NCBI GenBank assembly: GCA_964385615.1
Contig: CAYLPP010000010.1
Span: forward strand, 21,565-85,564
From: an uncultured bacterium
Lineage (GTDB): Bacteria; Omnitrophota; Omnitrophia; Omnitrophales; Aquincolibacteriaceae
Direction: 5' to 3'
DNA length: 64,000 bases
The position numbers and the translations under genes are program-made. Positions 22,667 through 38,947 of this stretch are shown in pieces (within the stretch, counting starts at the first letter, position 1; every line of letters begins with the position of its first letter). The notes under the pieces are model-generated. The model worked only from the letters and a program-made list of their open reading frames with translations, searched no databases and was not told where the DNA came from.

Positions 22667-23740
22667 TCAGGACACGAGATCAATCCAACCGCCGCCCAAA
22701 ACCCTGTTACCGTCATAGAGAACCGCGCCCTGCCCCGGAGTAATGGCATCCTGCGGCTCTTCAAATTCAATGGCAATACTCTGATCATTTAAAACCCTGA
22801 TTTCCGCGGGAGCCTTGGTGTGCTGTGAGCGGATTTTAACATGCGCCTTAAAAAGATTTTCACCTGGTTTCACAAACCAATTCATACGGCCCACATTGCA
22901 CCGCAAGCCGTACACTTCTTCTTTTGTGCCGACAACCACTTCATTTGTTTCAGGCAATGTTTCAAGCACGTAAAGGCGTTCTGAATTTCCTCCGCCCAAG
23001 CCGCGCCGCTGGCCGCGGGTGTAATTAAAAAATCCTTCGTGTTCGCCAAGAACCTGGCCCGCGCGGGTACGGATAATTCCTTTACGGGGAGCCGCTTCCT
23101 TATATTCGCGTTTCAGAAACTGACCGTAATCATTGCTCGGAATAAAGCAGATTTCCTGAGAATCCGGCTTTCCGGCAACTTTCAGCCCCATTTCAGCCGC
23201 CTGAGCCCGAATCTCCGCCTTGGTGAAACCTCCAATAGGAAGGTAAAGCCGGTTCAGCACTTCCGGGTCTAAAGGAAACAGAACATACGACTGATCTTTT
23301 GAAGCATCGGCACCTTCTGATAAAACCGAACGGCCGGTTTCGTCACGTTCAAGTTTCGCGTAATGTCCGGTGGCAATCGCGTCAAAACCCAATTCCTGGG
23401 CGCGCTTTAAAAATAGACGAAATTTGATGTGCTCATTACAAGCGACGCAAGGATTGGGTGTACGGCCCTTGAGGTATTCGGAAGCAAAATAATCAACAAC
23501 GTGTTTTTTGAAATCTTTTTCAAAATTAAAAACCCAGTAGCGGATTCCCAGTGATTCAGCGACATCACGCGCGTCTTCAACGCCGGAAAGACCGCAGCAG
23601 GCCCGGGTATTCAGATCCGCGCATTCATTGGAAGCCCACGTGCGGATCGTGGCCCCCGCGACCTCATGGCCCTGCTTCTGTAAAAGAGCCGCGGCCACGG
23701 AACTGTCCACTCCGCCGCTCATGGCGACAAGTATTTTCAT
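22667..23740 (-). CDS. mnmA: tRNA-specific 2-thiouridylase
   Basis: MKILVAMSGGVDSSVAAALL PP-loop, 357 aa, and a MnmA-type C-terminal domain. Confidence 0.88.
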   Translation of the reverse strand: MKILVAMSGGVDSSVAAALLQKQGHEVAGATIRTWASNECADLNTRACCGLSGVEDARDVAESLGIRYWVFNFEKDFKKHVVDYFASEYLKGRTPNPCVACNEHIKFRLFLKRAQELGFDAIATGHYAKLERDETGRSVLSEGADASKDQSYVLFPLDPEVLNRLYLPIGGFTKAEIRAQAAEMGLKVAGKPDSQEICFIPSNDYGQFLKREYKEAAPRKGIIRTRAGQVLGEHEGFFNYTRGQRRGLGGGNSERLYVLETLPETNEVVVGTKEEVYGLRCNVGRMNWFVKPGENLFKAHVKIRSQHTKAPAEIRVLNDQSIAIEFEEPQDAITPGQGAVLYDGNRVLGGGWIDLVS

Positions 23741-23742
23741 AG

Positions 23743-25868
<2,126 letters not shown>

Positions 25869-26265
25869 ATCGGTTTAACCATAAACGCTGGCGCCGGATT
25901 CTCAGTTCAGGCTCTACCCGAAACCGTACATCCGGAAGCCGGCCCTCTTCAAATAAAACAGCCTGCACTTCTCTCGTTTCTGACGCTCTGAGCACAAGGG
26001 TGATGTCTTTTCTCAAAACCCGAATAGGCAAATCTCCCTTAGGGGCTGTTTCATCATAAAAAACAGCCTGCGCCCGAAGTACCACCTCGCGGGGTTCTTC
26101 AGTAGCATTCACAACTTTTCCGGTCACTTTATATTGAAACGGCTGGGTCTGCTGAAGGCTGACATTATCAACGGAGACTTCACCGAAGGCTTTGAGCGTT
26201 GAAACAAAACCCGCGAATAAAAGAACAGTGATTCCTAAAATTTTTATTTTTTCTAATTTCATATT

Positions 26266-26991
26266 TTAAAAACTTAGAACCGCATGGCTGTCTTGCCCGG
26301 AAATGACGCAGCGGATTTTTCCGCGCCCGTCACGCCTGGCTTCGGCTAGCCCAGCCAAAGCCCGTTCGATCAACTGTTCCCGGCTTTCGCCCGCGTGATA
26401 GGCGGTAAGCCCGGCGCTGAAACTGCAATCGAGCCTTTCCTGCGCCTGAGCTAACAACCGTTGAATAAATTTTTCCGAACGGACCAAGTCCGTGTGCGGA
26501 AGTAAAATATAAAACTCATCGCCTTCCCGCCGGGCCAGCAAATCCGTAATCCGGACACTGGCGCGTAAAAACCCGGCGAACCTCTGAAGCGTTTCCGGCC
26601 CGCGGTTTTTGAGATCTAAGAGGCAAAGCGTGGCGGGATAATGATACCGCCCTGCGCGGCGCATTTCTGTTTCCAGCAGCTTTTCAAAATGAAGCCGGTT
26701 AAAAAGCCCTGTCTGAAGATCGTGATTCACCGCACGGTCAAACCCCATCCAGAAAAACCGGGCAGAAAAAATCATAACCCAGAAAATCAGGTTAACGGCC
26801 TGAAGCCCCATCAGCAAAGGTTCTTTGAGGCATTCCTGAATAACGGAGTCAAGCGACCGGGTTCCAAAACCCAGCCAGAGCATAAACGCGAGCTGGCTTA
26901 AAAGCGCGGCAATAAGAAAAAAACTTTCGGCCTGGATCAGCTGAATGCGTCTTTCGAAAAGAGTCGGAACTTCTTTATCGCGGATGCGCAT
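26266..26991 (-). CDS. Membrane-anchored GGDEF-domain protein with a variant EGDEF signature
   Basis: Two to three N-terminal TM helices, then DLQTGLFNR...LLDLKNRG...RREGDEFYILL. This is a GGDEF-type domain with an E-G-D-E-F active-site motif. Confidence 0.7.
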   Translation of the reverse strand: MRIRDKEVPTLFERRIQLIQAESFFLIAALLSQLAFMLWLGFGTRSLDSVIQECLKEPLLMGLQAVNLIFWVMIFSARFFWMGFDRAVNHDLQTGLFNRLHFEKLLETEMRRAGRYHYPATLCLLDLKNRGPETLQRFAGFLRASVRITDLLARREGDEFYILLPHTDLVRSEKFIQRLLAQAQERLDCSFSAGLTAYHAGESREQLIERALAGLAEARRDGRGKIRCVISGQDSHAVLSF

Positions 26992-27048: not shown

Positions 27049-28215
27049 TTACTGAAGCGCTTCTTTTAAAGCTTCAAGCAAGAACCGGATATCCCCTTCA
27101 TTGTGAGCCGCGGAAGCCGTAACTCGAAGCCTGGCCTTACCTTTCGGCACCGTCGGATACCTGACCGCGGGCACCAGAACCCCCCGGCTGAGCAGCTTTT
27201 CAGATACCGCTAAAGCTTTTTCTTCCGTTCCCAAAATGACCGGAAGAATCGGGGAAGCATTTCCTTCAGGAATTTCGATCCCCAGACTTTGAAAACCTTT
27301 TTTCAGCCTTTCCGCGTTAGCCCAAAGTTTTAAACGGAGAGCGGGTTCTTCTTTCATAACATCAAAGGCTTCGTGGGCGGCACGGCACACCGCGGGAGGA
27401 AGCGCCGTGGCAAAAATAAACGGCCTGGAAAAATTAATCAGATACTCGACCGTTTGAATGGAGGCCGCCGCAAAACCGCCGATCAAACCCGCCGCTTTCG
27501 ACAAAGTTCCGGTAATGACGTCCACTTTCGCGCAAAGATTTTGATCAATAGCCGGGTTTCCCTGCGGATCGGGAAAAACACCCGTTACATGCGCGTCATC
27601 CAGGACAAGCAAGGTATTGTATTTTTCTTTCAGCCGGACAAGCTCGGAAATATCGGCAAGATCACCATCCATACTGAAAACGGTATCAGAGACCAGAATT
27701 TTCTTTGCGTGCTCTGAAATTTTCAGAATTTCCTCCGCCCGCTCATAATTTTTGTGAGGAAACACGCGGATTTCCGCGCCGGATAAACGGGCACCGTCAA
27801 CCAGTGACGCGTGGCAGAGTTTGTCCATCAGGATCAAATCTCCTTCGCCGGCCAGCGCGCTTAAAACTCCAAGATTCGCGAGATAGCCCGCGCTGAACAA
27901 TAGCGCGTTTTCTTTGTGCTTATAACCGGCAATCTTTTTTTCAAGCCTGACGTGATCCTCTGAGTGACCCGAGATCAGCTGAGCGGCTCCGGAACCCGCG
28001 CCGGTCTCCTGAATCGCTTGGCCAAAAGCCTGAGTAACGCGCGGATGATGCGTCAATCCCAGGTAGTCATTCCCGCAGAAAAGAAGGATTTCACGGCCTT
28101 CGTGAAGGGCTCTGACGGCGCTGACAGGCTGAAGCCCGCGCAGTTTCCGGTAGAGGTTTTTTTCACGGACTTCACGGAGTTCTTCTTCAATAAAATTTGT
28201 CATTTTTGAGTTCAA
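27049..28215 (-). CDS. bioF: 8-amino-7-oxononanoate synthase (alpha-oxoamine synthase family)
   Basis: Aligns along its length with E. coli BioF, for example DTVFSMDGDLADISELV versus EGVFSMDGDSAPLAEIQ, and VRYPTVPKGKARLRVTASAAH versus [21 protein letters not shown]. 388 aa. Confidence 0.75.
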   Translation of the reverse strand: MNSKMTNFIEEELREVREKNLYRKLRGLQPVSAVRALHEGREILLFCGNDYLGLTHHPRVTQAFGQAIQETGAGSGAAQLISGHSEDHVRLEKKIAGYKHKENALLFSAGYLANLGVLSALAGEGDLILMDKLCHASLVDGARLSGAEIRVFPHKNYERAEEILKISEHAKKILVSDTVFSMDGDLADISELVRLKEKYNTLLVLDDAHVTGVFPDPQGNPAIDQNLCAKVDVITGTLSKAAGLIGGFAAASIQTVEYLINFSRPFIFATALPPAVCRAAHEAFDVMKEEPALRLKLWANAERLKKGFQSLGIEIPEGNASPILPVILGTEEKALAVSEKLLSRGVLVPAVRYPTVPKGKARLRVTASAAHNEGDIRFLLEALKEALQ

Positions 28216-29423
28216 ACCTTTCGAAGAAGAATCGCGGCTGCATGACCGCCGAATCCCAACGAGTAGGATAACGCTGTTTGAATTTTCGCGGGCCGGGCTT
28301 TTAGCGGTGTGTAATCCAGGTCACATTCCGGATCAGGTTTTTCCAGATTGGCCGTAGGCGGAACAAAACCGTATTCCATCGCTAAAAAAGCCGCGATCAC
28401 TTCAACGGCACCCGAAGCCCCGAGCATATGGCCGGTAATCGATTTAGTGGAAGTCATGGGAATTTTAAAAACTCCGCTGCCGAAGAATTTTTTAAGCTGG
28501 CAGGTTTCGTATACATCCCCAAGCTTGGTCGCGGTACCATGAAGATTAATATGCTGAATTTCAGACCGGCTGACCCCGGTTAATTCAAGCGCTTGTTCTA
28601 ACGTCCGTTGTAAGGTATCCCCGTCAGGATCAAATTGGACAGGATCATACGCGTCCATACCATAAGCTCCTCCGAGAATTTCTCCGTAGATTTTAGCGCC
28701 TCGAGCTTTAGCGCTTTCCAAAGTTTCCAAAAAAATCACCCCGCCCCCCTCACCGACCCCGAATCCATCCCGGCGCAAATCAAAAGGACGCATGGGACCG
28801 CGCGTAAGGGCTTTCATATTATGGTAAGCAGCCATCATGAGCGGTGTTACTGAAGCGTCGCTGGAACCCGCAAGGCAGTAATCCGTGTAGCCATCTGCGA
28901 CCATACGGGCACCCTCAAGAATCGAAGCCGTTCCCGTGGCGCAAGCCAGAACATAGCATTTAGCGGGACCTTGAAGTTTCCATTTCCGCGCGATCCATTG
29001 AGCGCCAAAATTCGGAACAGAATTACAGTAAATGCGCGCGCCCAGAATCGCACTTGGATTTTTTTTAAACCGCTCTGAGAAACGGTCAAGCGTGTGAACA
29101 CCGCCCTTGCTTGAACTAACCGCCATTCCAACACGATAAGGGTCTACTTGAGACGGATCAAACTTCGCGTCCCGCAAAGCTTCATCCGCGGCCGCAACCG
29201 CGTATTGAATGAATGGATCCAAAAGATGGGTGCCGTGCACATGGGGAACAAAATTTTTAACTTCGTAGGCGTATTTAGCGGGAAAATCTGGAATATCAAA
29301 AGAACGGATGGGACCTCCGCCATGATTACCCGCGCGAAGATTGCTCAGGAATTCAGGAAGACTGCTGCCCGCCGGACTGACCACGCCCATTCCGGTGGCA
29401 ACCACACGGCGCTTAAAACTCAT
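28212..29423 (-). CDS. Beta-ketoacyl-ACP synthase I/II-like (FabF/FabB family)
   Basis: 403 aa with a KAS I/II-type thiolase fold: active-site Cys region (ACATGT), HGTATKLGD and [14 protein letters not shown]. Overlaps bioF by 4 nt. Confidence 0.75.
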
Positions 29424-31237
29424 TTCCCCCCGTCGGCCTGGAGAAAAATATTCTGAGAGTTTAAAAACGAAAGGAGTTTTTTGGCGTTTTTTGAAGCGGA
29501 ATCTTTTTCACTTAAATCCAAATCAACAATACTGCTGCGGAATTGATTGGGACCCACGTTTACGATAAAAATACCGGAACGGTCCGTGACTTCCTGAAGA
29601 AGATGAAGTTCCTCATCATTCAAATTACTGGCTGTTGCCAGCACAATCAGGCCGGCATCCATTAAAATGTGCCCGACTTCGCCCAAACGGCGGACGTGTT
29701 CACGGCGTTTGGATTTATGCCCTTCAATATCCGCGTCTAACCCGCGAAGAAGATTTCCAATACCCAGAAAATAGGTTTTAGCTCCATTTTCAAAAAGAGT
29801 TTTTTCTACTTCCTTAGCGATCGTCTTTTTATCGACTCCCACTTTACCGGTCAAAAGAACCAGCTTGGGCTGGTGACCATACTTAGCCTCCCGCACCTTG
29901 GGTTCGACAACGCTGAAATCCCATTTCATTTCGCGTTCGTGCACCTGCTCGCGAACATCCGCCTGGTCATCGCGCACCAAAGCGGAAATAATTCCTCCGC
30001 CGGCAATATCGTATTGGTCTACGATCACAAACCGGCCCGTAGCTTCAATCGCATCCGCCGTATCAAAAGCAAGCGGGCGGGCGCATTCAAGCACGCACTG
30101 GGCAACATCATGACGCTCAATGATTTTCTTCTCAGCCTTCTTCAGGTCAGAAGCATCAATGATCTTTTTGATGGTTTTTAAATAAACAGGAACGGCAGCG
30201 CTTCCAATCTTGAGTTTGTATTCCTTGTCCTGAACCATTGGACTCTTGCCCATCCAGAAGATCTCAACCTGAATCAGCGGACCAACCAACGGCTGGGTTT
30301 CCTCCAGCTTGCACATAATATCGCCACGCTGAATATAAATCTGTTCTTTCAGGGTGAATCCAGCGCAATACCCGGCAACCATTTTTTTAGGTGACGGAGC
30401 ATTGAAAATTTCGATACTTTTAATTTCAGTCCGCTTGTTGGATGGCAGGAAGACGACCTTATCACCGACAGCAATGGTTCCCGCTTCAATCTTACCTGCC
30501 ACGATACGGCGGTCATCCCCCTCTTCCGTAAACTTGTAAACACCCTGCACCGGAAGACGAAAAGGTTTTTGCGCCAAGTCCGGAGCTTTTTCAAACAAGT
30601 CCAGAACCTCGAGCACGGATGGGCCTTTAAACCAGGAAAGATTTTTAGAGCTTTCGATCAGATTTTCACCGTGCATCGCGGCGAGCGGAATAAAAAACTT
30701 AGGCTCGACGCCGATCTGCTTCAGAAACTTGCGGTATTCAATCTGAATATCGTTAAAAGCTTTTTCGCTGTAATTAACCAAATCCATTTTGTTAACACAA
30801 ACCGCGATCTGGCGGATGCCAAGCATGGAAAGCAGGTAGCCGTGACGTTTAGAATTTTCCTGCACGCCTTCTTTAGCGTCAATAATCAAAAGAGCGGCTT
30901 CAGCTCGCGCGGCACCGCTAACCATGTTTTTCAGAAATTCAATGTGTCCGGGAGCATCGATAATAATGTATTCGCGTTTCTTGCTTTTAAAAAAGCAGCG
31001 GGCTGAATCAATCGTGATTCCCTGAGCTTTTTCATCTTTAAGAGCATCGAGAAGGAAAGCGTATTCGAAGGGTTTGGAATTGCGTTTGCACTCAGCGCGA
31101 ACCTGATCCAGCTTACCCTGAGGAAGCGAACCTGTATCCGCGAGCAAACGGCCAATGACCGTGCTTTTGCCATGGTCCACATGACCCACGATCACAATAT
31201 TCATTTTTAGGTCATTTTTTTCAGCCGTCTTAGACAT
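29420..31237 (-). CDS. cysN: Sulfate adenylyltransferase subunit 1 (CysN GTPase) fused to a C-terminal APS-kinase-like domain with degenerate catalytic motifs
   Basis: N-terminal GHVDHGKST / DAPGH / NKMD GTPase motifs. The C-terminal roughly 175 aa align to CysC ([22 protein letters not shown] versus [22 protein letters not shown]). The P-loop reads GKVGVDKKT instead of GLSGSGKST, and the LDGD motif is LGIG. Confidence 0.8.
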
Positions 31238-32112
31238 TACATGTATCCTTCTTTACGAAGAGTCTCAAGACCGCCGTCTTCAGCATCCTGCGCGCGGCCG
31301 GCACGCTCAGCAATGTTCGCAAATTTACCGGTCTTAAGTTCTTGAATAATCTCTTTAATATTTTTTGCCGTGGATTCCACTGAGGAAGTGCACGGGTAAC
31401 AGCCCAGGGAACGGTAACGTCTACCGGTACCTTGATCGAAATAAAGAGGAACTACCGGAATGTTTTCCGCATCGATATATTCCCAAATATCGAGCTCCGT
31501 CCAATCAAGCAAAGGATGAACCCGGATATGCGTTCCTGGCGCGAAATCCGTTTTGAACTGGTTCCAGAGTTCAGGCGGCTGATCGCCGATATTCCAGTCA
31601 TTGCGTTTATCGCGAGGAGAAAAATAGCGTTCTTTTGACCGGCTGCCTTCTTCATCGGAGCGCACGCCGACGATCACGCCGGTATAAGGTTCTTTATTTT
31701 CATCAACAACGTATTTTTTAAGCTCATGATCCATACGGTAACGCGTCCACTCGCCAGAAAGGGTTTTACGAAGAGCTTCCGTCTTTAAAGTTTTGCAGCA
31801 GCTGAGGCGATCGAGATTACCATCCGGATAGGTACGCTTTTCTCTAAGCGCATCCACGTTTTGTCCGTAAACCATGTTCAGCTTCCATTCCAGAGCGAGC
31901 CGGTCACGGTACTGAATCATTTCCGGGATCTTGTAGGCTGTATCAATATGAACAAGGGGAAAGGGCACGTGGCCGAAAAACGCCTTGCGGGCCAGCCAGA
32001 GTAGAACAGTGCTGTCTTTGCCGATCGACCAGAGCATCGCCAGGTTTTTAAAGTTGGCGTAGGCCTCGCGCAAAATATAAACGGATTGAGCTTCAATCTT
32101 TTCGAGATGTGT
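31237..32112 (-). CDS. cysD: Sulfate adenylyltransferase subunit 2
   Basis: [46 protein letters not shown] aligns to the E. coli CysD N-terminus. The ORF track extends it to a TTG at 32157. The stop overlaps the cysN start. Confidence 0.85.
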
Positions 32113-32204
32113 CATAAATGAAGAGTCCGTATTATAGCACAACTCCTGAATTTGCAAAGAGTTGTAATCATGAATCCCTATTGATGCGGTAGGGATTTAT
32201 CCGG

Positions 32205-32921
32205 CTAGATTTTTCGGGATTCGAAGTGAAAAACCTGTCCCGTGACCCCTTTCATGGCGTCTGAAGACAGATAAACCAGAAAATCCGCGACTTCTTCGGG
32301 GTCGGAAATCCGGCCAAGAGGGCTGGCTTCGGTCTGGTTGAGCAAGACCTGCTCAGGAAGATTTTCAGTCATAGAGGATTTCATGAACCCCGGATTGACC
32401 GCATTGACTAGAATGCTTTTTTTACCAAGTTCCTGGGCTAGAGATTTCGTCAAACCAATCAGTCCGGCCTTGGCGGCAGAATAATTCGAAATTCCGACAC
32501 CGCCTTGAATCGCGGCACGGCTGGTAATCATTAAAATTTTGGCCGGAGGCTCTGCCCGAAAAAGAGACAGCAAAAGTTTTTTCGTCAGGTAATACGGAGC
32601 TTTTAAATCCACCGCCATGACGTGATCCCATTCCTCTTCCGTCATATTCTGCAGAGTGTGGTCACGCACCGCGGCCGCATTATGAATCAAAACATCCAGC
32701 GTTTTTATTTTTTCTTTGAAGGTCTTAACAAAAGCGTCAATAGCGGCGGTGTCGGCAAGATTAAGGGGAAAGCCTTCCGCTCCGCTTTTTTGAAGCTCTT
32801 GTGCCTCAGTAAGATTTTGATGGTAGGTAAAAAAAACGCGGGCACCTGCCGCTGCCGCTTTTCGGACAAAGCAGCTTCCCAATCGGCTTGTGCCTCCCGT
32901 GATCAGGATATTTTTATTCAA
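32205..32921 (-). CDS. Short-chain dehydrogenase/reductase (FabG-like)
   Basis: TGGTSRLG Rossmann motif, NAA, and the YSAAKAG catalytic Tyr-x3-Lys; 238 aa. The start overlaps the bioB stop (ATGA). Confidence 0.75.
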   Translation of the reverse strand: MNKNILITGGTSRLGSCFVRKAAAAGARVFFTYHQNLTEAQELQKSGAEGFPLNLADTAAIDAFVKTFKEKIKTLDVLIHNAAAVRDHTLQNMTEEEWDHVMAVDLKAPYYLTKKLLLSLFRAEPPAKILMITSRAAIQGGVGISNYSAAKAGLIGLTKSLAQELGKKSILVNAVNPGFMKSSMTENLPEQVLLNQTEASPLGRISDPEEVADFLVYLSSDAMKGVTGQVFHFESRKI

Positions 32922-33943
32922 ACTTGCGCGGGATCTTTCTTGGAATCAGCCGCCGGGCGTTTTGCAGGTTCAAAGCCGGCGCGCTTCAGCATCTCAAAAT
33001 CGTCTTTCATAGGATTCGCAGAAGTCGTGAGATACCCGCCGACAATCAAACCATTCGCACCGCCCTTAAGCGACATTTCCTGGTATTGATTCCCCAAATT
33101 CACTTCCCGTCCTCCAGCCAGTTTAATGTTGGCTTTCGGATGGATAAACCGGTAAACGGCGATGGTTTTAACCATTTCCAGCGGATCGGGCGCCGGTACA
33201 TTTTCTAATGGCGTTCCAGGACGAGGGTTCAAGATATTCATCGGAAGACAATGAGGCGCGAAAGGCTTAAGTTCAAAAGCCAGTTTCACGCGGTCTTCAC
33301 GGGTTTCTCCCATGCCAAGAATTCCTCCGGAGCAAATTTCCATATTCCCGTCCTGAAGCATCTTCAAGGTTTCAAGTCTCTTATCATAAGTATGCGTGGT
33401 CACAATCTTAGGATAAAACTCGCGGGAACTCTGAAGGTTATCATTAAAACGGCGGACCCCCGTTTCCTTCAAGCGCTTCACCCGTTCTGGAGTCAAAAAT
33501 CCCAAAGACCCGTCTAAATTCATGGAGGTTTCCGCTTTTAGGCGCGTATAAATTTCGATGACCTGATCGAATTCTTTCTCAGACAATTCCCCGCCGCTGG
33601 TCACAACGCAGAAATTATGAGCACCTTTCTTTTCGAAATCCTTAGCCGCCGCGACCACTTCTTCGGTCGGCATCATCTGATAGCGGTTAACCCGGGTATC
33701 AAAACGCACGGACTGCGAACAAAAACCGCAATCTTCTCCGCAAAGATAACTCTTGGCGTTAATCAAAGAACAAAGTCCCGGCTCATTGGAGTTAAAATTA
33801 AAATTAATTTCCCGCGCCGCTTCCAAAAGCGGTTCCATGTCCGGCCCCGCCGGATCAATTTCGACGAGCTTCATCGCTTCTTCAAAAGAAACTTCTCCGC
33901 CGCCCAAAACTTTGTTTTTGAGTTCTTCGATCAAATTTTTCAT
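32918..33943 (-). CDS. bioB: Biotin synthase (radical SAM)
   Basis: CGEDCGFCSQS radical-SAM cluster motif. NDNLQSSREFYPKIVTTHTYDKRLETLKMLQDGNMEICSGGILGMGET aligns to E. coli BioB [47 protein letters not shown]. Confidence 0.8.
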   Translation of the reverse strand: MKNLIEELKNKVLGGGEVSFEEAMKLVEIDPAGPDMEPLLEAAREINFNFNSNEPGLCSLINAKSYLCGEDCGFCSQSVRFDTRVNRYQMMPTEEVVAAAKDFEKKGAHNFCVVTSGGELSEKEFDQVIEIYTRLKAETSMNLDGSLGFLTPERVKRLKETGVRRFNDNLQSSREFYPKIVTTHTYDKRLETLKMLQDGNMEICSGGILGMGETREDRVKLAFELKPFAPHCLPMNILNPRPGTPLENVPAPDPLEMVKTIAVYRFIHPKANIKLAGGREVNLGNQYQEMSLKGGANGLIVGGYLTTSANPMKDDFEMLKRAGFEPAKRPAADSKKDPAQV

Positions 33944-33950
33944 TTAATTT

Positions 33951-34193
33951 TCAGCCTTCAACAATATCCCCGATGACCGGATCCACACCCACGCCTTTTT
34001 CGCGCAAGCCTTTCTCGGCTTTGTCGATATCCGATTGGGCGCCTTCCAGTTCGATCGTGGCTTCACCCGCTTCATGCGAAATCTTGGCGCGGCGAATATT
34101 TAAGAGCAGGTTGTTGTCACGGGCCACCAGGTACATGATAGGCTCCTTGATCAATTTCTGAGGAAAAACGAGGTGGAACGCTTTTTTGGGCAT
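33951..34193 (-). CDS. Stand-alone NIL-domain (MetN C-terminal-like, ferredoxin-fold) protein
   Basis: About 80 aa resembling the C-terminal NIL domain of methionine-ABC ATPases (NNLLLNIRRAKI...GEATIELEG). The start is set at the internal Met to avoid overlap with the carrier gene. Confidence 0.45.
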   Translation of the reverse strand: MPKKAFHLVFPQKLIKEPIMYLVARDNNLLLNIRRAKISHEAGEATIELEGAQSDIDKAEKGLREKGVGVDPVIGDIVEG

Positions 34194-34194
34194 A

Positions 34195-34470
34195 TTACCC
34201 TCCGGCAATCGCGGGAACGATAGAAATCTGATCCCCGTCTTTCAGAGACGTTTCTTCCTGCTGAAGAAAGCGGATGTCTTCTTCGTTCAGGTAAACATTC
34301 ACGAACCGGCGAACTTTTCCGGTATCGTCGCAAAGGCGGTCCTTGATGCCTGGAAAATTTTTCTCGAGCTGATTGATCATGTCCTTGACGTTGCCGGCCT
34401 GGATATCAACTTCACCCTGATTATTGGTCAGTTTCTGAAGCGGTGTTGGAATTCTTACTTTAATCGCCAT
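34195..34470 (-). CDS. MoaD/ThiS/CysO-type sulfur-carrier protein ending in Gly-Gly
   Basis: 91 aa with a beta-grasp-sized ORF whose C-terminus is ...[10 protein letters not shown] followed by stop. It lies between the NIL protein and the PLP enzymes. Confidence 0.75.
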
Positions 34471-34500
34471 GAGATTTTCTCCCTTACTAAGATTTTTAAA

Positions 34501-35751
34501 TCAGACTTTAACAGCCGCGCCAGACCCCATAACCTTGCTGTCAAAAGAAGACAGATTCGGCTCAATAAGCGAGGGCTCGCCCACGCTGTCCTGGATCGCT
34601 TCCTGCGTTTTTAGACCATTTCCGGTAATCGCCAAAACGGTTGACCCGGTTTTCGGAATGACGCCCTGTTCAATCAGTTTCTTGGCGGTGGCTACGGTTA
34701 CTCCGCCGGCTGTTTCGGTGAAAATACCTTCAGTGCGCGCCAAAAGCTTGATGCCTTCCCGGATCTCATCATCTGAAACAATTCCGGCGGCGCCGCCGGA
34801 ATTTAAAATAACATCTTTCGCGTAATAACCATCGGCAGGATTGCCAATCGCGAGCGATTTGGCAATCGTTGAGGGTTTAACGGGCCGGATCACATCTGCT
34901 TTGGCTTGAATTGCGGTAGAAATCGGCGAACAGCCTTCAGGCTGAGCGCAGAAAACCTTGGTCTGCACTTTATTTTCGAGCAGGCCGAGTTTTTCAAATT
35001 CTTTTAAAGCTTTCCAGATTTTTGTGATTAAAGAACCGCTGGCAGCCGGAGCCACAATATGATCAGGGGCGCGCCAACCAAGCTGTTCAGCAATTTCAAA
35101 ACCCATAGTCTTGGAACCTTCAGCGTAATACGCGCGCAAATTAATATTCACAAAACCCCAACGGTACTTAGCCGCGATCTCAGCGCATAAACGGTTAACA
35201 TCGTCGTAGTTTCCGTTCACGGCGACCAGGTTCGGAGAATAAACAAGACTGGCGATAATCTTGGTTTTTTCCAACGTCGCCGGAATAAAAATGTAGCGCT
35301 TGAAACCCGCCCATGCCGCATTGGCGGCAACCGAATTCGCTAAATTGCCGGTTGAAGCGCAAGCAACCGTATCAAAACCCAATTCCCGGGCGCGGGACAA
35401 AGCGACTGCCACAACACGGTCTTTAAACGACCAGGTTGGATGGCATACAGAATCATCCTTAATATAGAGTTCTTTAACCCCAAGCTCACGGGCAAGCACA
35501 TCCGCTTTAACCAGCGGAGTAAACCCAGAATAAAAACCAGCGCTGGGCTCTCCGTCGATCGGCAGTAATTCACGGTAACGCCACAAACTTTTCGGACCCT
35601 TAAGAATTTTATCCCGGGTCAAAGTTTTTTTTATGCCGTCATAATCGTAAACCGCCTCAAGAGATCCAAAGCAGTACTCACAGACATAGAGCGCCTGCTT
35701 GGGAAATTCGCGGCCGCATTCACGGCATTTTAACGCTTTCAAGAAAGACAT
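34501..35751 (-). CDS. Threonine-synthase-family PLP enzyme with an N-terminal Cys4 zinc ribbon (candidate carrier-protein-dependent homocysteine synthase, or cysteate synthase)
   Basis: CRECG...CEYC ribbon, SFKDR PLP-lysine motif, and a ThrC-like fold over 416 aa. Its neighbours are the GG carrier and the APS/PAPS reductase. Confidence 0.6.
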   Translation of the reverse strand: MSFLKALKCRECGREFPKQALYVCEYCFGSLEAVYDYDGIKKTLTRDKILKGPKSLWRYRELLPIDGEPSAGFYSGFTPLVKADVLARELGVKELYIKDDSVCHPTWSFKDRVVAVALSRARELGFDTVACASTGNLANSVAANAAWAGFKRYIFIPATLEKTKIIASLVYSPNLVAVNGNYDDVNRLCAEIAAKYRWGFVNINLRAYYAEGSKTMGFEIAEQLGWRAPDHIVAPAASGSLITKIWKALKEFEKLGLLENKVQTKVFCAQPEGCSPISTAIQAKADVIRPVKPSTIAKSLAIGNPADGYYAKDVILNSGGAAGIVSDDEIREGIKLLARTEGIFTETAGGVTVATAKKLIEQGVIPKTGSTVLAITGNGLKTQEAIQDSVGEPSLIEPNLSSFDSKVMGSGAAVKV

Positions 35752-35765
35752 TTATCTCACCTTTT

Positions 35766-36722
35766 TTAGACTTTGAAGGCCTCATCCATGCTGAGATACC
35801 GTTCGCCGGTATCACAAATCACGGTGACCACATTTTTACCAGGACCAAGCTCACGGGCCAGTTGAAGCGCCGCCCATACGTTGGCACCCGCTGAAATACC
35901 GCACAGAAGCCCTTCTTTTGAAGCAAGCTCCATGGAAGTTTTCCAAGCATCCTGATCTTCAACCTGAATAACTTGATCGATCACATTACGGTTTAGAACT
36001 TCCGGAACAAAACCCGCGCCGATGCCCTGAATTTTATGTTTCCCCGGAGCACCTCCGGAAAGAACAGGCGAGGTTTTCGGCTCCACAGCAACGACTTTAA
36101 TAGCCGCGTTTTTCTTTTTGAATACTTCCCCGCAGCCTGTCACGGTTCCGCCGGTACCCACGCCAGCGACAAAACCATCCACTTTCCCATCCAGGGCTTC
36201 CCAGATTTCTTCAGCCGTGGTTTCACGGTGAATTTTAGGGTTGGCCGGATTGGCAAACTGCTGCGGAATAAAACTGTTTTTATTCTGTTCGGCAATTTCT
36301 TTAGCCTTGGCAATCGCGCCTTTCATGCCTTCCGCGCCCGGCGTCAGCACAAGCTCGGCTCCGTACCGCTTCAAAAGCTGACGGCGCTCCACGCTCATTG
36401 TTTCCGGCATAGTCAAAATCAAACGGTACCCTTTCACGGCGCAAACCAGCGCGAGACCAATTCCGGTATTGCCTGATGTAGGCTCTACAATGACCGTGTC
36501 TTTATTAATCAGCTTTTTTTCTTCCGCGTCCCGAATCATGCTTAAACAAATCCGGTCCTTAACGCTTCCCCCCGGATTAAAAGATTCCAGTTTTCCATAA
36601 ACCGCGGCCATTTGCGGATTCGCTAATTTATTGATGCGAACTAACGGAGTGTTACAGATCAACTCAAGCATATTAGAGGCTAATGCGGGCTTGCTGTGCT
36701 TCACGGTCGTCGTCATAATCAT
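35766..36722 (-). CDS. cysK: Cysteine synthase (O-acetylserine/O-phosphoserine sulfhydrylase; CysK/CysM family)
   Basis: SVKDR PLP lysine, [10 protein letters not shown] and GIGAGFVP motifs; 318 aa. Confidence 0.8.
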
Positions 36723-36730
36723 CTCCCTCG

Positions 36731-37489
36731 TTAAATATTTTCCGAATACCCGGCCTGGTCTTCTTTGGGTTCGGACATTTCTTTGGGTTTTACTTCTTTA
36801 AATGTGTGGATACCGCATTCCTTTTTACTCAACCCTGCCCAGCGCCCTGAACGCTCATCATCCCCGGCCTGAATGGGTTTGGTGCACGGCCAGCAGCCAA
36901 TACTTAAATACCCTTTTTCAAAAAGAGGGTGCTGAGGAATCTGGTGTTCCTTTAAATACCACCAGGCGTCGCGGGACGTAAAATTAGCCAGCGGGCTGAC
37001 TTTATAAAGACCGCCCTCATATTCTTCAAGAATCCGGATAGACTTCCTAAAGTCGGTTTGATGCCTGCGGATTCCGCTCATCCAGGCGTCATAATTTTTA
37101 AGCGCTTCGTCCAGAGGTTCAACTTTATTGATCTGACAGCACAAGTCCGGATTTTTCTCGTAAGGGACGCCGTCATAGCGCTTCACAACTTCCGCTTTCT
37201 TGGCCGGATCCGCCTTCAAATCGAGAACCTGGGTCAGGCCAAACATCTGCACCAGCCTGTTTTTGTATTCGAGCGTCTCAGGAAAATGATATCCGGTTTC
37301 CAAAAAAAGAACAGGAATATTTGGGTTGATCCGGCTAGCCATATGAAGCAGAACACCGCTTTCCGGCCCGAAGGAAGAAGTCATGGCAAAACGCGGGAAT
37401 TCTTTCACCGCCCAGGCAATAATCTCCTGCGGTTTTTTATTTTCAAAATCATCGTTAAATTTTTCAAGATCTATTTTGCTGATCAACAC
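36731..37489 (-). CDS. cysH: Adenylylsulfate/phosphoadenylylsulfate reductase, Fe-S-containing type
   Basis: PAPS_reduct fold with the CC pair ([10 protein letters not shown]) and CxxC (SIGCWPC) that ligate the [4Fe-4S] cluster of APS-reductase-type enzymes. Confidence 0.8.
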
Positions 37490-37497
37490 GGTTCCTT

Positions 37498-38367
37498 TTA
37501 GGCGGCAATGCGGCCGCGTAAACGCTCAACCATTTCATAACCCATCTGAATACCGTAACTGCCAAGATCCACGCCAGGTTTTTGCGTGCCGTGAAAATCG
37601 CTCCCGGCAGTTACAACCAAGTTATAGCGCTTGGCTATTTTTAGATAAACGCCCTGCTCTTCCATGTTCTGACAACTGTTATAAACTTCGATGCCGGCTA
37701 AACCGTATCCGGCCAGTTTTTCAATTTCACGGTCCAACTCACCGTCATTCAATTTCATTTGCTTCGGGTGAGCCACAGAAGCAACCCCGCCCGCTTTTTG
37801 AATTAATTCAATCGCTTCCCGGGCTTCAATGCGTCTTTTGTCAATATAAGCCGGCCGGCCTTTCGCCAGATACTTTTCAAAGGCTTCCCGGGCATCTTTA
37901 ACAACACCCTTTTTAACCAGAACTTTGGCAAAATGCGGGCGCCCGATCTGTTTAAGGTTTTCCGGCACTTCTTTCGAAGCCCCCGAAAAAGCTTCTTCAA
38001 GAACTTCCTTCATAGTAATTTCAATTCCCGACTCATTGAGTTTTCGAATGATGCCGGGATTTCTTTCACGCCGGGCGATCTGAATTTCTTCCAGTTTCCG
38101 CTTTAAATCCGGATGATTACGATCCAGAAAATAACCCAACACATGCAGTGTTCCGGGTTCAAAAACGGCGCTGAGCTCAATCCCCGGGACAAGCTCAATC
38201 CCTAATTTTTCAGCTTCCCGCGCACACGGTTCGTAACTCGACATCGTGTCATGATCTGTAACCGAAACACACGCCAGTTTTTTTTCCGCGCAATAGCGCA
38301 TCAACGCTTCCGGAGAGTAGCTCCCGTCAGAGTGCGTGGTGTGCATATGAAAATCCACAATTTTCAT
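37498..38367 (-). CDS. PHP-family phosphoesterase (candidate 3'-phosphoadenosine-5'-phosphate phosphatase)
   Basis: MKIVDFHMHTTHSDGS... with a PHP-domain His/Asp pattern (HxH, DHD). The start is set at the internal Met so that it abuts the cysC stop. It sits between cysC and cysH. Confidence 0.6.
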   Translation of the reverse strand: MKIVDFHMHTTHSDGSYSPEALMRYCAEKKLACVSVTDHDTMSSYEPCAREAEKLGIELVPGIELSAVFEPGTLHVLGYFLDRNHPDLKRKLEEIQIARRERNPGIIRKLNESGIEITMKEVLEEAFSGASKEVPENLKQIGRPHFAKVLVKKGVVKDAREAFEKYLAKGRPAYIDKRRIEAREAIELIQKAGGVASVAHPKQMKLNDGELDREIEKLAGYGLAGIEVYNSCQNMEEQGVYLKIAKRYNLVVTAGSDFHGTQKPGVDLGSYGIQMGYEMVERLRGRIAA

Positions 38368-38368
38368 A

Positions 38369-38947
38369 TCAAGCTTTAAACTGAAGGTACCCCAGAGCTT
38401 CCAGGCGGCTGACAACTTTCGCTGCGGACTGTTCCGGCGTTTCATTTTCGGTTTCGCAGACAACTTCAGGATTCAAAGGTTCTTCATAGGGGTCATCCAC
38501 GCCAGTCATGCCTTTCAGCTCGCCGGCTTTGGCTTTTTCATAAAGACCCTTCACGTCACGTTTTTGACATTCCGCCAAAGAAGTTTTCACAAAAACCTCG
38601 ACAAAATTTCCAATCATACGCCGGGCTTGATCCCGCGTTTCACGGTAAGGGGAAATGGCGGAGGAAACCGCCAAAACATCATTGCGGGTCAAAAGTTGGC
38701 AAACAAAAGCCAAGCGTTTGACATTTGTGTCCCGGTCTTCTCGGGAGAAACCCAAACCCTTGGTTAAATGAGTGCGAATCACGTCACCATCCAGCAACTC
38801 TGTTTTAAGACCCCACTTGCGGAATTGTCTCTCAAGAAGCCGGGCAATGGTGGATTTGCCGGAACTAGGCAGGCCGGTAAACCAAACCGTGACCCCCCGG
38901 GTCAGGCTGGCTTGATCACGTTTTAAGATGGCTGTATCAGTTGTCAT
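38369..38947 (-). CDS. cysC: Adenylylsulfate kinase
   Basis: VWFTGLPSSGKSTIARLL P-loop and the LDGDVIR motif; 192 aa. Confidence 0.88.
   Translation of the reverse strand: MTTDTAILKRDQASLTRGVTVWFTGLPSSGKSTIARLLERQFRKWGLKTELLDGDVIRTHLTKGLGFSREDRDTNVKRLAFVCQLLTRNDVLAVSSAISPYRETRDQARRMIGNFVEVFVKTSLAECQKRDVKGLYEKAKAGELKGMTGVDDPYEEPLNPEVVCETENETPEQSAAKVVSRLEALGYLQFKA

Follow-up and report, generated by a model that had tools for sequence, protein, structure and literature searches.

Sulfate-activation genes inside a biotin gene array of Candidatus Omnitrophota: probable displacement of sat beside a candidate pimelate module

Introduction

Why do the two genes of a sulfate adenylyltransferase lie between two genes of fatty-acid-synthesis type in the middle of a biotin operon? 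The question is raised by a stretch of 64,000 nt (referred to as the window, whose numbering is used for all coordinates) from a metagenome-assembled genome (MAG) of Candidatus Omnitrophota, which comprises 2.59 Mb on 33 contigs and is 95% complete. In this window, cysD and cysN are placed between the gene of a FabG-like short-chain dehydrogenase/reductase (SDR) and that of a FabF-like 3-ketoacyl-ACP synthase (KAS; ACP, acyl carrier protein), with bioB on one side and a gene of the alpha-oxoamine synthase (AOS) family on the other. The original prediction, made from the sequence of the window, preferred biotin synthesis and kept the capnine-type sulfonolipid pathway as an alternative. In this study, we followed up both possibilities by profile searches, phylogeny and comparison of gene order in relatives. 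We conclude that the AOS is BioF, and we consider it likely that the locus as a whole combines an ordinary late biotin pathway with cysDN genes that displaced sat and with a KAS/SDR pair acting as front end of pimelate synthesis.

Results

Every gene of the array is carried by the minus strand, and open reading frame (ORF) coordinates together with hidden Markov model (HMM) assignments reproduced the gene order and overlaps described originally. Biotin synthase BioB (32918-33943; TIGR00433, 362 bits vs 225; Radical_SAM and BATS domains) is followed with a 4-nt overlap by the SDR, of 3-oxoacyl-ACP reductase type (32205-32921; best HMM TIGR01830, 194 bits, under the cut-off of 298). Then come cysD, the small subunit of sulfate adenylyltransferase (31237-32157; NF003587, 350 bits vs 195), and cysN, its GTPase subunit, with a 1-nt overlap (29420-31237; TIGR02034, 338.5 bits vs 336.1). 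The KAS overlaps cysN by 4 nt and is of KAS I/II type (28212-29423; PF00109 and PF02801; best HMM fabF, 378 bits vs a cut-off of 494), and the AOS overlaps the KAS by another 4 nt (27049-28215; TIGR00858, 414.1 bits vs a cut-off of 426.45). Further downstream, bioA (24474-25868; TIGR00508, 549 bits vs 405) and bioD (23743-24471; TIGR00347, 170 bits vs 83) complete the set of bio genes.

Among NCBIfam models, the AOS was matched best by bioF (414 bits), with the next families at 345-348 bits and serine palmitoyltransferase (SPT) at about 296. Against PDB structures, BioF entries scored 267, 263 and 256 bits, compared to 236 for 5-aminolevulinate synthase (ALAS), about 224 for SPT and 2-amino-3-ketobutyrate CoA ligase (KBL), and 192 and 152 for the cysteate acyltransferases of CapB type and SulA, respectively. 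For the phylogeny, references comprised the BioF and Kbl proteins annotated in the K-12 record of E. coli, Alistipes Kbl, two Alistipes SulA orthologues (one of them scoring 712 bits against PDB 7u7h), an SPT-like protein from a deltaproteobacterial MAG and 30 Desulfobacterota homologues, nearly all of which are encoded beside bioB, bioA or bioD. A careful IQ-TREE phylogeny places the 20 Omnitrophota AOS in a single clade (ultrafast bootstrap, UFBoot, 100 / SH-aLRT 99) nested among the BioF references, and the split separating BioF from Kbl, SPT-like and SulA proteins received 99/86, the SulA orthologues forming a long branch of their own. Constraining the Omnitrophota AOS to group with SulA cost 30 log-likelihood units. 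The pyridoxal phosphate (PLP) lysine Lys240 is conserved, as are His135, Asp206, His209 and Thr237, and Arg23 and Arg352 are kept in 20/20 Omnitrophota AOS. These two correspond to Arg21 and Arg349 of E. coli BioF, which we take to be involved in binding pimeloyl. At the position of Arg21, Kbl has Lys and the SPT-like protein Pro, and the partial SulA sequence stops short of it, while the position of Arg349 is occupied by hydrophobic residues in Kbl, the SPT-like protein and SulA (Phe, Leu and Ile). The gene is moreover the sole AOS-family member of a genome that carries bioA, bioD and bioB, and any other label would therefore leave biotin synthesis without a BioF. By sequence, tree and genomic context the AOS is BioF, and bioB, bioF, bioA and bioD constitute an ordinary late biotin pathway. 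The original preference for biotin is thus borne out, based on the clade, the uniqueness of the gene, the structure scores and the lack of a cysteate synthase described in the following.

In the sulfonolipid alternative, the AOS would act as cysteate-C-fatty acyltransferase, the SDR as dehydrocapnine reductase and the KAS as source of the acyl chain, while cysDN and a cysteate synthase would supply cysteate. The proposal draws on the adjacency of the AOS, SDR and KAS trio to sulfur-activation genes and to two PLP enzymes of beta-replacement type, and on an SDR family whose members are indistinguishable by sequence alone. The two PLP enzymes fail both cysteate-synthase models and pass those of ThrC and CysK: the gene originally put forward as a possible cysteate synthase belongs to the ThrC family (34501-35751; TIGR00260, 267 bits vs 167), scoring 72 vs 325 with the cysteate synthase model TIGR03844. 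Its neighbour cysK, which we considered for the same role, is an ordinary cysteine synthase A (35766-36722; TIGR01139, 459 bits vs 351; CapA model NF053679, 217 vs 600). Furthermore, the trio is unchanged in relatives that yielded neither cysD nor sat, namely the clade G012/G014/G021, where bioB-SDR-KAS-bioF is kept in fetched 19-kb loci that hold no cys genes. Since the evidence identifies the AOS as BioF, outside the SulA/CapB clade, and no cysteate synthase is present, we reject sulfonolipid synthesis and regard it as extremely improbable.

With biotin synthesis as the preferred reading, the position of cysDN was addressed by comparing the neighbourhoods of KAS orthologues from 20 relatives and 11 further loci. 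A conserved core emerged with the order bioB-SDR-KAS-bioF-(GGDEF-small)-bioA-bioD-mnmA-rnf-like, often preceded by cysC-PAPase-cysH-cysK-thrC-thiS-NIL. Within it, bioB-SDR-KAS-bioF is found in 18/20 relatives' loci, one of the remaining two being without the SDR and one comprising just cysD-cysN-KAS-bioF, and the SDR directly abuts the KAS in 14/20. In 12 of the 25 genomes of the window's own family, from at least nine genera, cysD-cysN sits at the SDR/KAS junction, as seen from an SDR-cysD or a cysN-KAS boundary. The placement that had been described as unusual is a recurrent feature and not peculiar to one genome. In a few other genomes cysDN sits elsewhere, and in 22/41 it was not found.

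Assimilatory sulfate reduction has two sulfate adenylyltransferases that are not homologous, CysDN and Sat. Using PF01747 as search model for Sat, the homomeric ATP sulfurylase, we found CysD in 19 and Sat in 13 of 41 genomes, with neither in nine and both in none. Homomeric Sat serves this step in three genomes of the window's family as well as in further families of the order, while much of the window's family lacks sat and has cysDN at the SDR/KAS junction. Three loci have sat between cysH and cysK (a placement seen in G017 and G027); G019 has it between the phosphatase gene and cysK, G038 between cysH and thrC, and G030 next to cysH. In the window, the gap between cysH and cysK is 8 nt, therefore leaving no room for sat. 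Because CysD and Sat never occur together, and because sat, wherever its position was checked, falls among the array's own sulfur genes or next to them, cysDN can be taken to have displaced sat within the array, probably settling at the SDR/KAS junction some 4.5 kb downstream. Non-orthologous displacement of sat inside one array would thus be the simplest reading of the comparative data, and the position of cysDN appears to carry no sign of sulfate activation taking part in acyl chemistry.

Three loci of the synteny sample depart from the common order. In L008 (G017:C23, 7037-9371), the KAS directly follows bioB, with neither SDR nor cysDN, and sat is located between cysH and cysK. L114 (G005:C76, 1053-5660) has three ORFs of 348, 482 and 541 aa inserted between SDR and cysD, and in L109 (G024:C52, 9666-15506) the place of bioB-SDR upstream of cysD is taken by a giant open frame, which exceeds 1900 aa and runs on the opposite strand.

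The motifs of both subunits are preserved, with the PP-loop SIGKDS of CysD and the GTPase motifs of CysN, including NKMD, intact. As cysD is present in a single copy and the genome is without Sat, CysD-CysN is, on comparative grounds, the predicted sole sulfate adenylyltransferase, filling the sulfate-activation role. It would feed the adjacent CysC and CysH, sulfite reductase and the CysK route, a sulfite reductase-type gene on contig C11 completing the assimilatory pathway. The C-terminal adenylyl-sulfate (APS)-kinase-like domain of CysN (29420-29950) is degenerate, with GKVGVDKKT as Walker A motif and LGIG in place of LDGD, and a bifunctional CysNC with competent APS kinase was discarded, given these lost motifs and 453 bits against the NF004035 cut-off of 715. 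An intact stand-alone cysC is situated 7 kb upstream, and the long form of CysN is found in every cysDN-bearing relative.

The gap between SDR and cysD spans 47 nt if translation of cysD starts at TTG, or 89 nt if it starts at the ATG at 32115. The latter is the likelier start, since all relatives' CysD alignments start within query residues 8-15, and nearly all of them within 12-15. Within this gap, a promoter scan indicated an element at 32131-32158 (minus strand) composed of TTTGCA, a 16-nt spacer and TGcTATAAT, and a TG-n-TATAAT-like element is present in the SDR-cysD gap of 5/7 relatives. The scan of the region for promoters and terminators gave site counts no higher than chance, so that only the recurrence in relatives lends weight to the -10-like element, which suggests an internal promoter for cysDN, KAS and bioF. 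A further step would be to regard cysD-cysN-KAS-bioF as a sulfur-responsive sub-operon, in which the conserved element would link biotin synthesis, in its committed steps, with sulfate activation; we consider this a rather improbable extension.

The same element is among the arguments for a functional placement of cysDN, either by co-expression with KAS and bioF for sulfur-responsive control of a cofactor that contains sulfur, or by direct involvement of APS, 3'-phosphoadenylyl sulfate (PAPS) or the CysDN complex in the pathway. It is joined by the 4-nt overlaps of cysN/KAS and KAS/bioF, the conservation of the junction in at least nine genera and the abundance of sulfur-handling genes in the array (bioB, mnmA and the thiS-like gene). 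The 14 relatives with SDR abutting KAS have no cysDN between them, G007 and G008 carry cysDN on another contig than the bio cluster, and Sat-bearing relatives activate sulfate from another slot of the array. The overlap of cysN and KAS is also not conserved, being replaced in relatives by gaps of roughly 7-130 nt as judged from approximate tblastn alignment ends. APS and PAPS are not known to be needed in any step of biotin synthesis. Compared to displacement of sat, a functional placement therefore seems very unlikely.

We then turn to the KAS and SDR, for which the original prediction suggested that they could feed pimeloyl-ACP. The catalytic triad of the KAS, Cys161-His295-His332, is invariant, and five further positions, invariant in the aligned biotin-cluster KAS sequences, differ from FabF: Lys106, Asp189, Tyr200 and Tyr305 were found in 122/122 KAS homologues and Leu271 in 121/122. 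Lys106 aligns with Ile108 of E. coli FabF (numbering checked), a residue that guides the acyl chain inside the binding pocket (PMC4606726). The KAS shares about 40% identity with the FabF paralogues of its own genome, and its orthologue group (at least 45% identity in aligned loci) was seen in Omnitrophota only. For the SDR, the Ser-Tyr-Lys triad is intact, and Arg135, directly after the catalytic Ser134, is present in 18/18 orthologues, while Arg236 in the C-terminal tail is present in 17/18. Four FabG-type comparison sequences (E. coli FabG, the genome's own FabG on contig C28 and its SDRs on C2 and C1) have Val/Leu and Gly at these positions.

From the fixed place of the pair between bioB and bioF and from the clade-specific basic residues, we infer a biotin-specific front end which would fit a dicarboxylate, Desulfovibrio-like route to pimeloyl-ACP. 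In this route, the KAS probably elongates malonyl- or glutaryl-ACP bearing a free omega-carboxylate, the SDR would reduce the 3-oxo intermediates, and the remaining steps of the cycles towards pimeloyl-ACP would fall to AcpP, FabZ and enoyl reductase of the housekeeping set. Lys106 in the acyl pocket of the KAS and Arg135 and Arg236 of the SDR are candidates for binding the omega-carboxylate. The suggestion that the pair feeds pimeloyl-ACP thus gains support from gene order (18/20) and pocket residues, whereas clustering with BioZ and other pimelate-pathway enzymes, considered originally as a test, is not literally attainable for the KAS, because BioZ is of KAS III type and the protein encoded here is of KAS I/II type. 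Membership of the KAS in the BioZ family was likewise dismissed from its PF00109 and PF02801 domains and its Cys-His-His triad, which are those of the KAS I/II type without a KAS III fold.

The KAS and SDR could instead be paralogues of general or other-lipid fatty acid synthases that travel with the bio genes, pimelate then being derived from some unrecognised source, for example a divergent BioC with an esterase, oxidative cleavage or uptake. The genome does contain numerous paralogues of both proteins and no fewer than two further KAS clusters, methyltransferase genes adjoin bioF in a distant relative, and since both proteins score below the equivalog cut-offs of FabF and FabG, the HMMs assign neither function. 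Against this stands the observation that bioF has the KAS as its neighbour, and that the SDR adjoins bioB or the KAS, in almost every locus examined across the order as well as in distant representatives. A complete canonical fabH-fabD-fabG-acpP-fabF set is available on another contig. The clade-invariant basic substitutions at pocket positions and the genetic precedent in Desulfovibrio argue in the same direction. In addition, no BioC above cut-off and no match for BioW were found in the 41 genomes, in searches whose positive controls worked. We therefore regard travelling paralogues as unlikely and retain the pimelate front end as preferred role of the pair.

The order SDR-KAS-AOS recurs in two distant representatives of the KAS family. 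One of them, P0217, has the context tatC-PHP-bioB-SDR-KAS-AOS, followed by two class I methyltransferase genes, a gene for an RRM protein and then bioA; these methyltransferases could be BioC-like. The profile search with the KAS against 1.84 billion representatives was dominated by giant polyketide synthases, and matches of 812-869 aa, which we had hoped to be KAS-BioF fusions, turned out to be KS-KS proteins. ACP-like genes of the genome are found on contigs C28 and C1 only, and FabZ-like genes on C12 and C1, while C2 yielded a weak match. The two further clusters of KAS paralogues, one at about 109-115 kb of C1 with ACP-like, FabZ-like and SDR genes and one at about 264-282 kb of C2, suggest that this small genome encodes other lipid or polyketide-type pathways.

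What had been called a biotin operon contains real bio genes but is only the middle of a much longer co-directional array, which is conserved in an order of Candidatus Omnitrophota and extends with gaps of 2-30 nt from cysC, beginning at 38947, through mnmA into rnf-like genes. Upstream of bioB, on the same strand and with gaps of 7-30 nt, it starts with cysC, a stand-alone adenylyl-sulfate kinase and first sulfur-assimilation gene of the array (38369-38947; NF002059, 251 bits vs a cut-off of 244). This is followed by a gene resembling 3',5'-bisphosphate nucleotidases (3'-phosphoadenosine 5'-phosphate, PAP, phosphatases) of the PHP family (37498-38463; best match NF041577, 218 bits, under the cut-off of 400), which adjoins cysC and cysH in relatives too. 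Next is cysH, encoding PAPS/APS reductase (36731-37489; NF002537, 263 bits vs a cut-off of 154), ahead of cysK and the ThrC-family gene. The section closes with a ThiS-family small sulfur-carrier protein of 91 aa (34195-34470; PF02597, 63 bits) and a stand-alone NIL-domain protein of 85 aa (33951-34208; PF09383, 38.8 bits), whose gene ends 7 nt upstream of bioB. The trio of ThrC-family, ThiS-family and NIL genes between cysK and bioB (33951-35751) is kept in the relatives' loci L110 and L112.

Two proteins are encoded between bioF and bioA, namely a membrane protein with a shortened, degenerate GGDEF domain (EGDEF; 26266-26991; PF00990, 70 bits) and a protein of 141 aa whose N-terminus resembles a signal peptide and which matched no family in HMM searches (25837-26262). 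Both are kept in many genomes of the family, while more distant families are without them. The tRNA 2-thiouridine synthase gene mnmA (22667-23740; NF001138, 418 bits vs 284) lies 2 nt downstream of bioD, a position kept across the order, and adds one more sulfur-transfer enzyme to the array. An Rfam search of 20000-44000 returned no element.

Discussion

The picture of a late biotin pathway joined by a displaced sulfate adenylyltransferase and a pimelate front end has to be weighed against several points that speak against it. The AOS remains 12 bits under the curated TIGR00858 cut-off, though this is its top family by about 66 bits. The reference set of its tree holds few SPT, KBL and SulA sequences and zero ALAS, and the approximately unbiased (AU) test rejects the grouping of Omnitrophota AOS with SulA just marginally (p = 0.042). 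Regarding the displacement of sat, genomes that carry cysDN in the cluster do not form one clade in a tree of concatenated bio proteins, which requires at least three changes. A single origin of the insertion is thus not supported by this tree, and the history must therefore include several losses, relocations or recombination events. Moreover, G017, sister to cysDN-bearing genomes, has sat, and the grouping of its bio proteins with those of cysDN genomes suggests recombination or repeated rearrangement of the array. Regarding the front end, the role of Lys106, Arg135 and Arg236 in a carboxylate-binding pocket is proposed from alignment. A divergent BioC could escape the model, since BioC-type methyltransferases are diverse, and two methyltransferase genes directly follow bioF in the distant relative. 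Finally, DVU2563 and DVU2561 of Desulfovibrio are counterparts of KAS and SDR, respectively, by gene content and at most putative orthologues. In looking for clusters of Desulfovibrio type, the KAS search of 201 Desulfobacterota genomes at E <= 1e-95 gave no match, and all 90 BioF loci from 108 of these genomes had no adjacent KAS.

If the combined reading holds, the KAS/SDR pair would represent, with two genes, a form of the methyl-ester-free route to the biotin precursor, whose biochemistry is unsolved, and it offers specific candidate residues, namely Lys106 of the KAS and Arg135 and Arg236 of the SDR. The odd mixture of genes would be explained by replacement of sat by cysDN in situ, within a long conserved array. 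A tempting false lead, sulfonolipid synthesis in Omnitrophota, is removed at the same time. Should the sub-operon described above exist, a sulfur-containing cofactor would in addition be under regulatory coupling to sulfur supply, next to a minimal, Lys/Arg-lined KAS/SDR route to pimeloyl-ACP.

With the capnine/sulfonolipid pathway (cysteate synthase CapA, the acyltransferase CapB/SulA with PDB entries 28eh and 7u7h, and the reductase CapC), the locus shares an AOS-family enzyme and an SDR near sulfur genes. It differs in that the AOS is BioF and not SulA/CapB, and in that cysteate synthase is absent from the models' matches. As in ordinary cys operons, cysC, cysH and cysK lie near cysDN, whose two products keep their motifs and score above the cut-offs of their families. 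Here, however, thrC-thiS-NIL-bioB-SDR intervene before cysDN, KAS and bioF come after it, and CysN, in contrast to ordinary CysDN, has a degenerate APS-kinase-like tail despite the separate intact cysC.

For a dedicated condensing enzyme in a bio locus, which must accept a primer with charged omega-carboxyl group, a parallel exists in BioZ, a 3-ketoacyl-ACP synthase of KAS III type that serves biotin synthesis in alpha-proteobacteria (PMC7645780, PMC12625853). Judged by analogy, the closest precedent for the KAS/SDR module is the extended biotin cluster DVU2558-DVU2565 of Desulfovibrio vulgaris Hildenborough, predicted by Rodionov et al. 2004 (PMC545781). Using randomly barcoded transposon sequencing (RB-TnSeq), Trotter et al. 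2023 found its FabF/FabG-type bio genes to be needed for biotin prototrophy and the extended cluster to be limited to Desulfobacterota and Chrysiogenetes (PMC10102598). Both systems place a FabF-like KAS and a FabG-like reductase among bioB, bioF, bioA and bioD, in an anaerobe setting with BioC, BioH and BioW not found, and in both the proposed role is methyl-ester-free elongation to pimeloyl-ACP. In contrast to the Desulfovibrio cluster, the Omnitrophota locus has neither a dedicated ACP nor a FabZ-like gene, its small ORFs being ThiS-like and NIL proteins; it belongs to a different phylum, and it carries cysDN between SDR and KAS.

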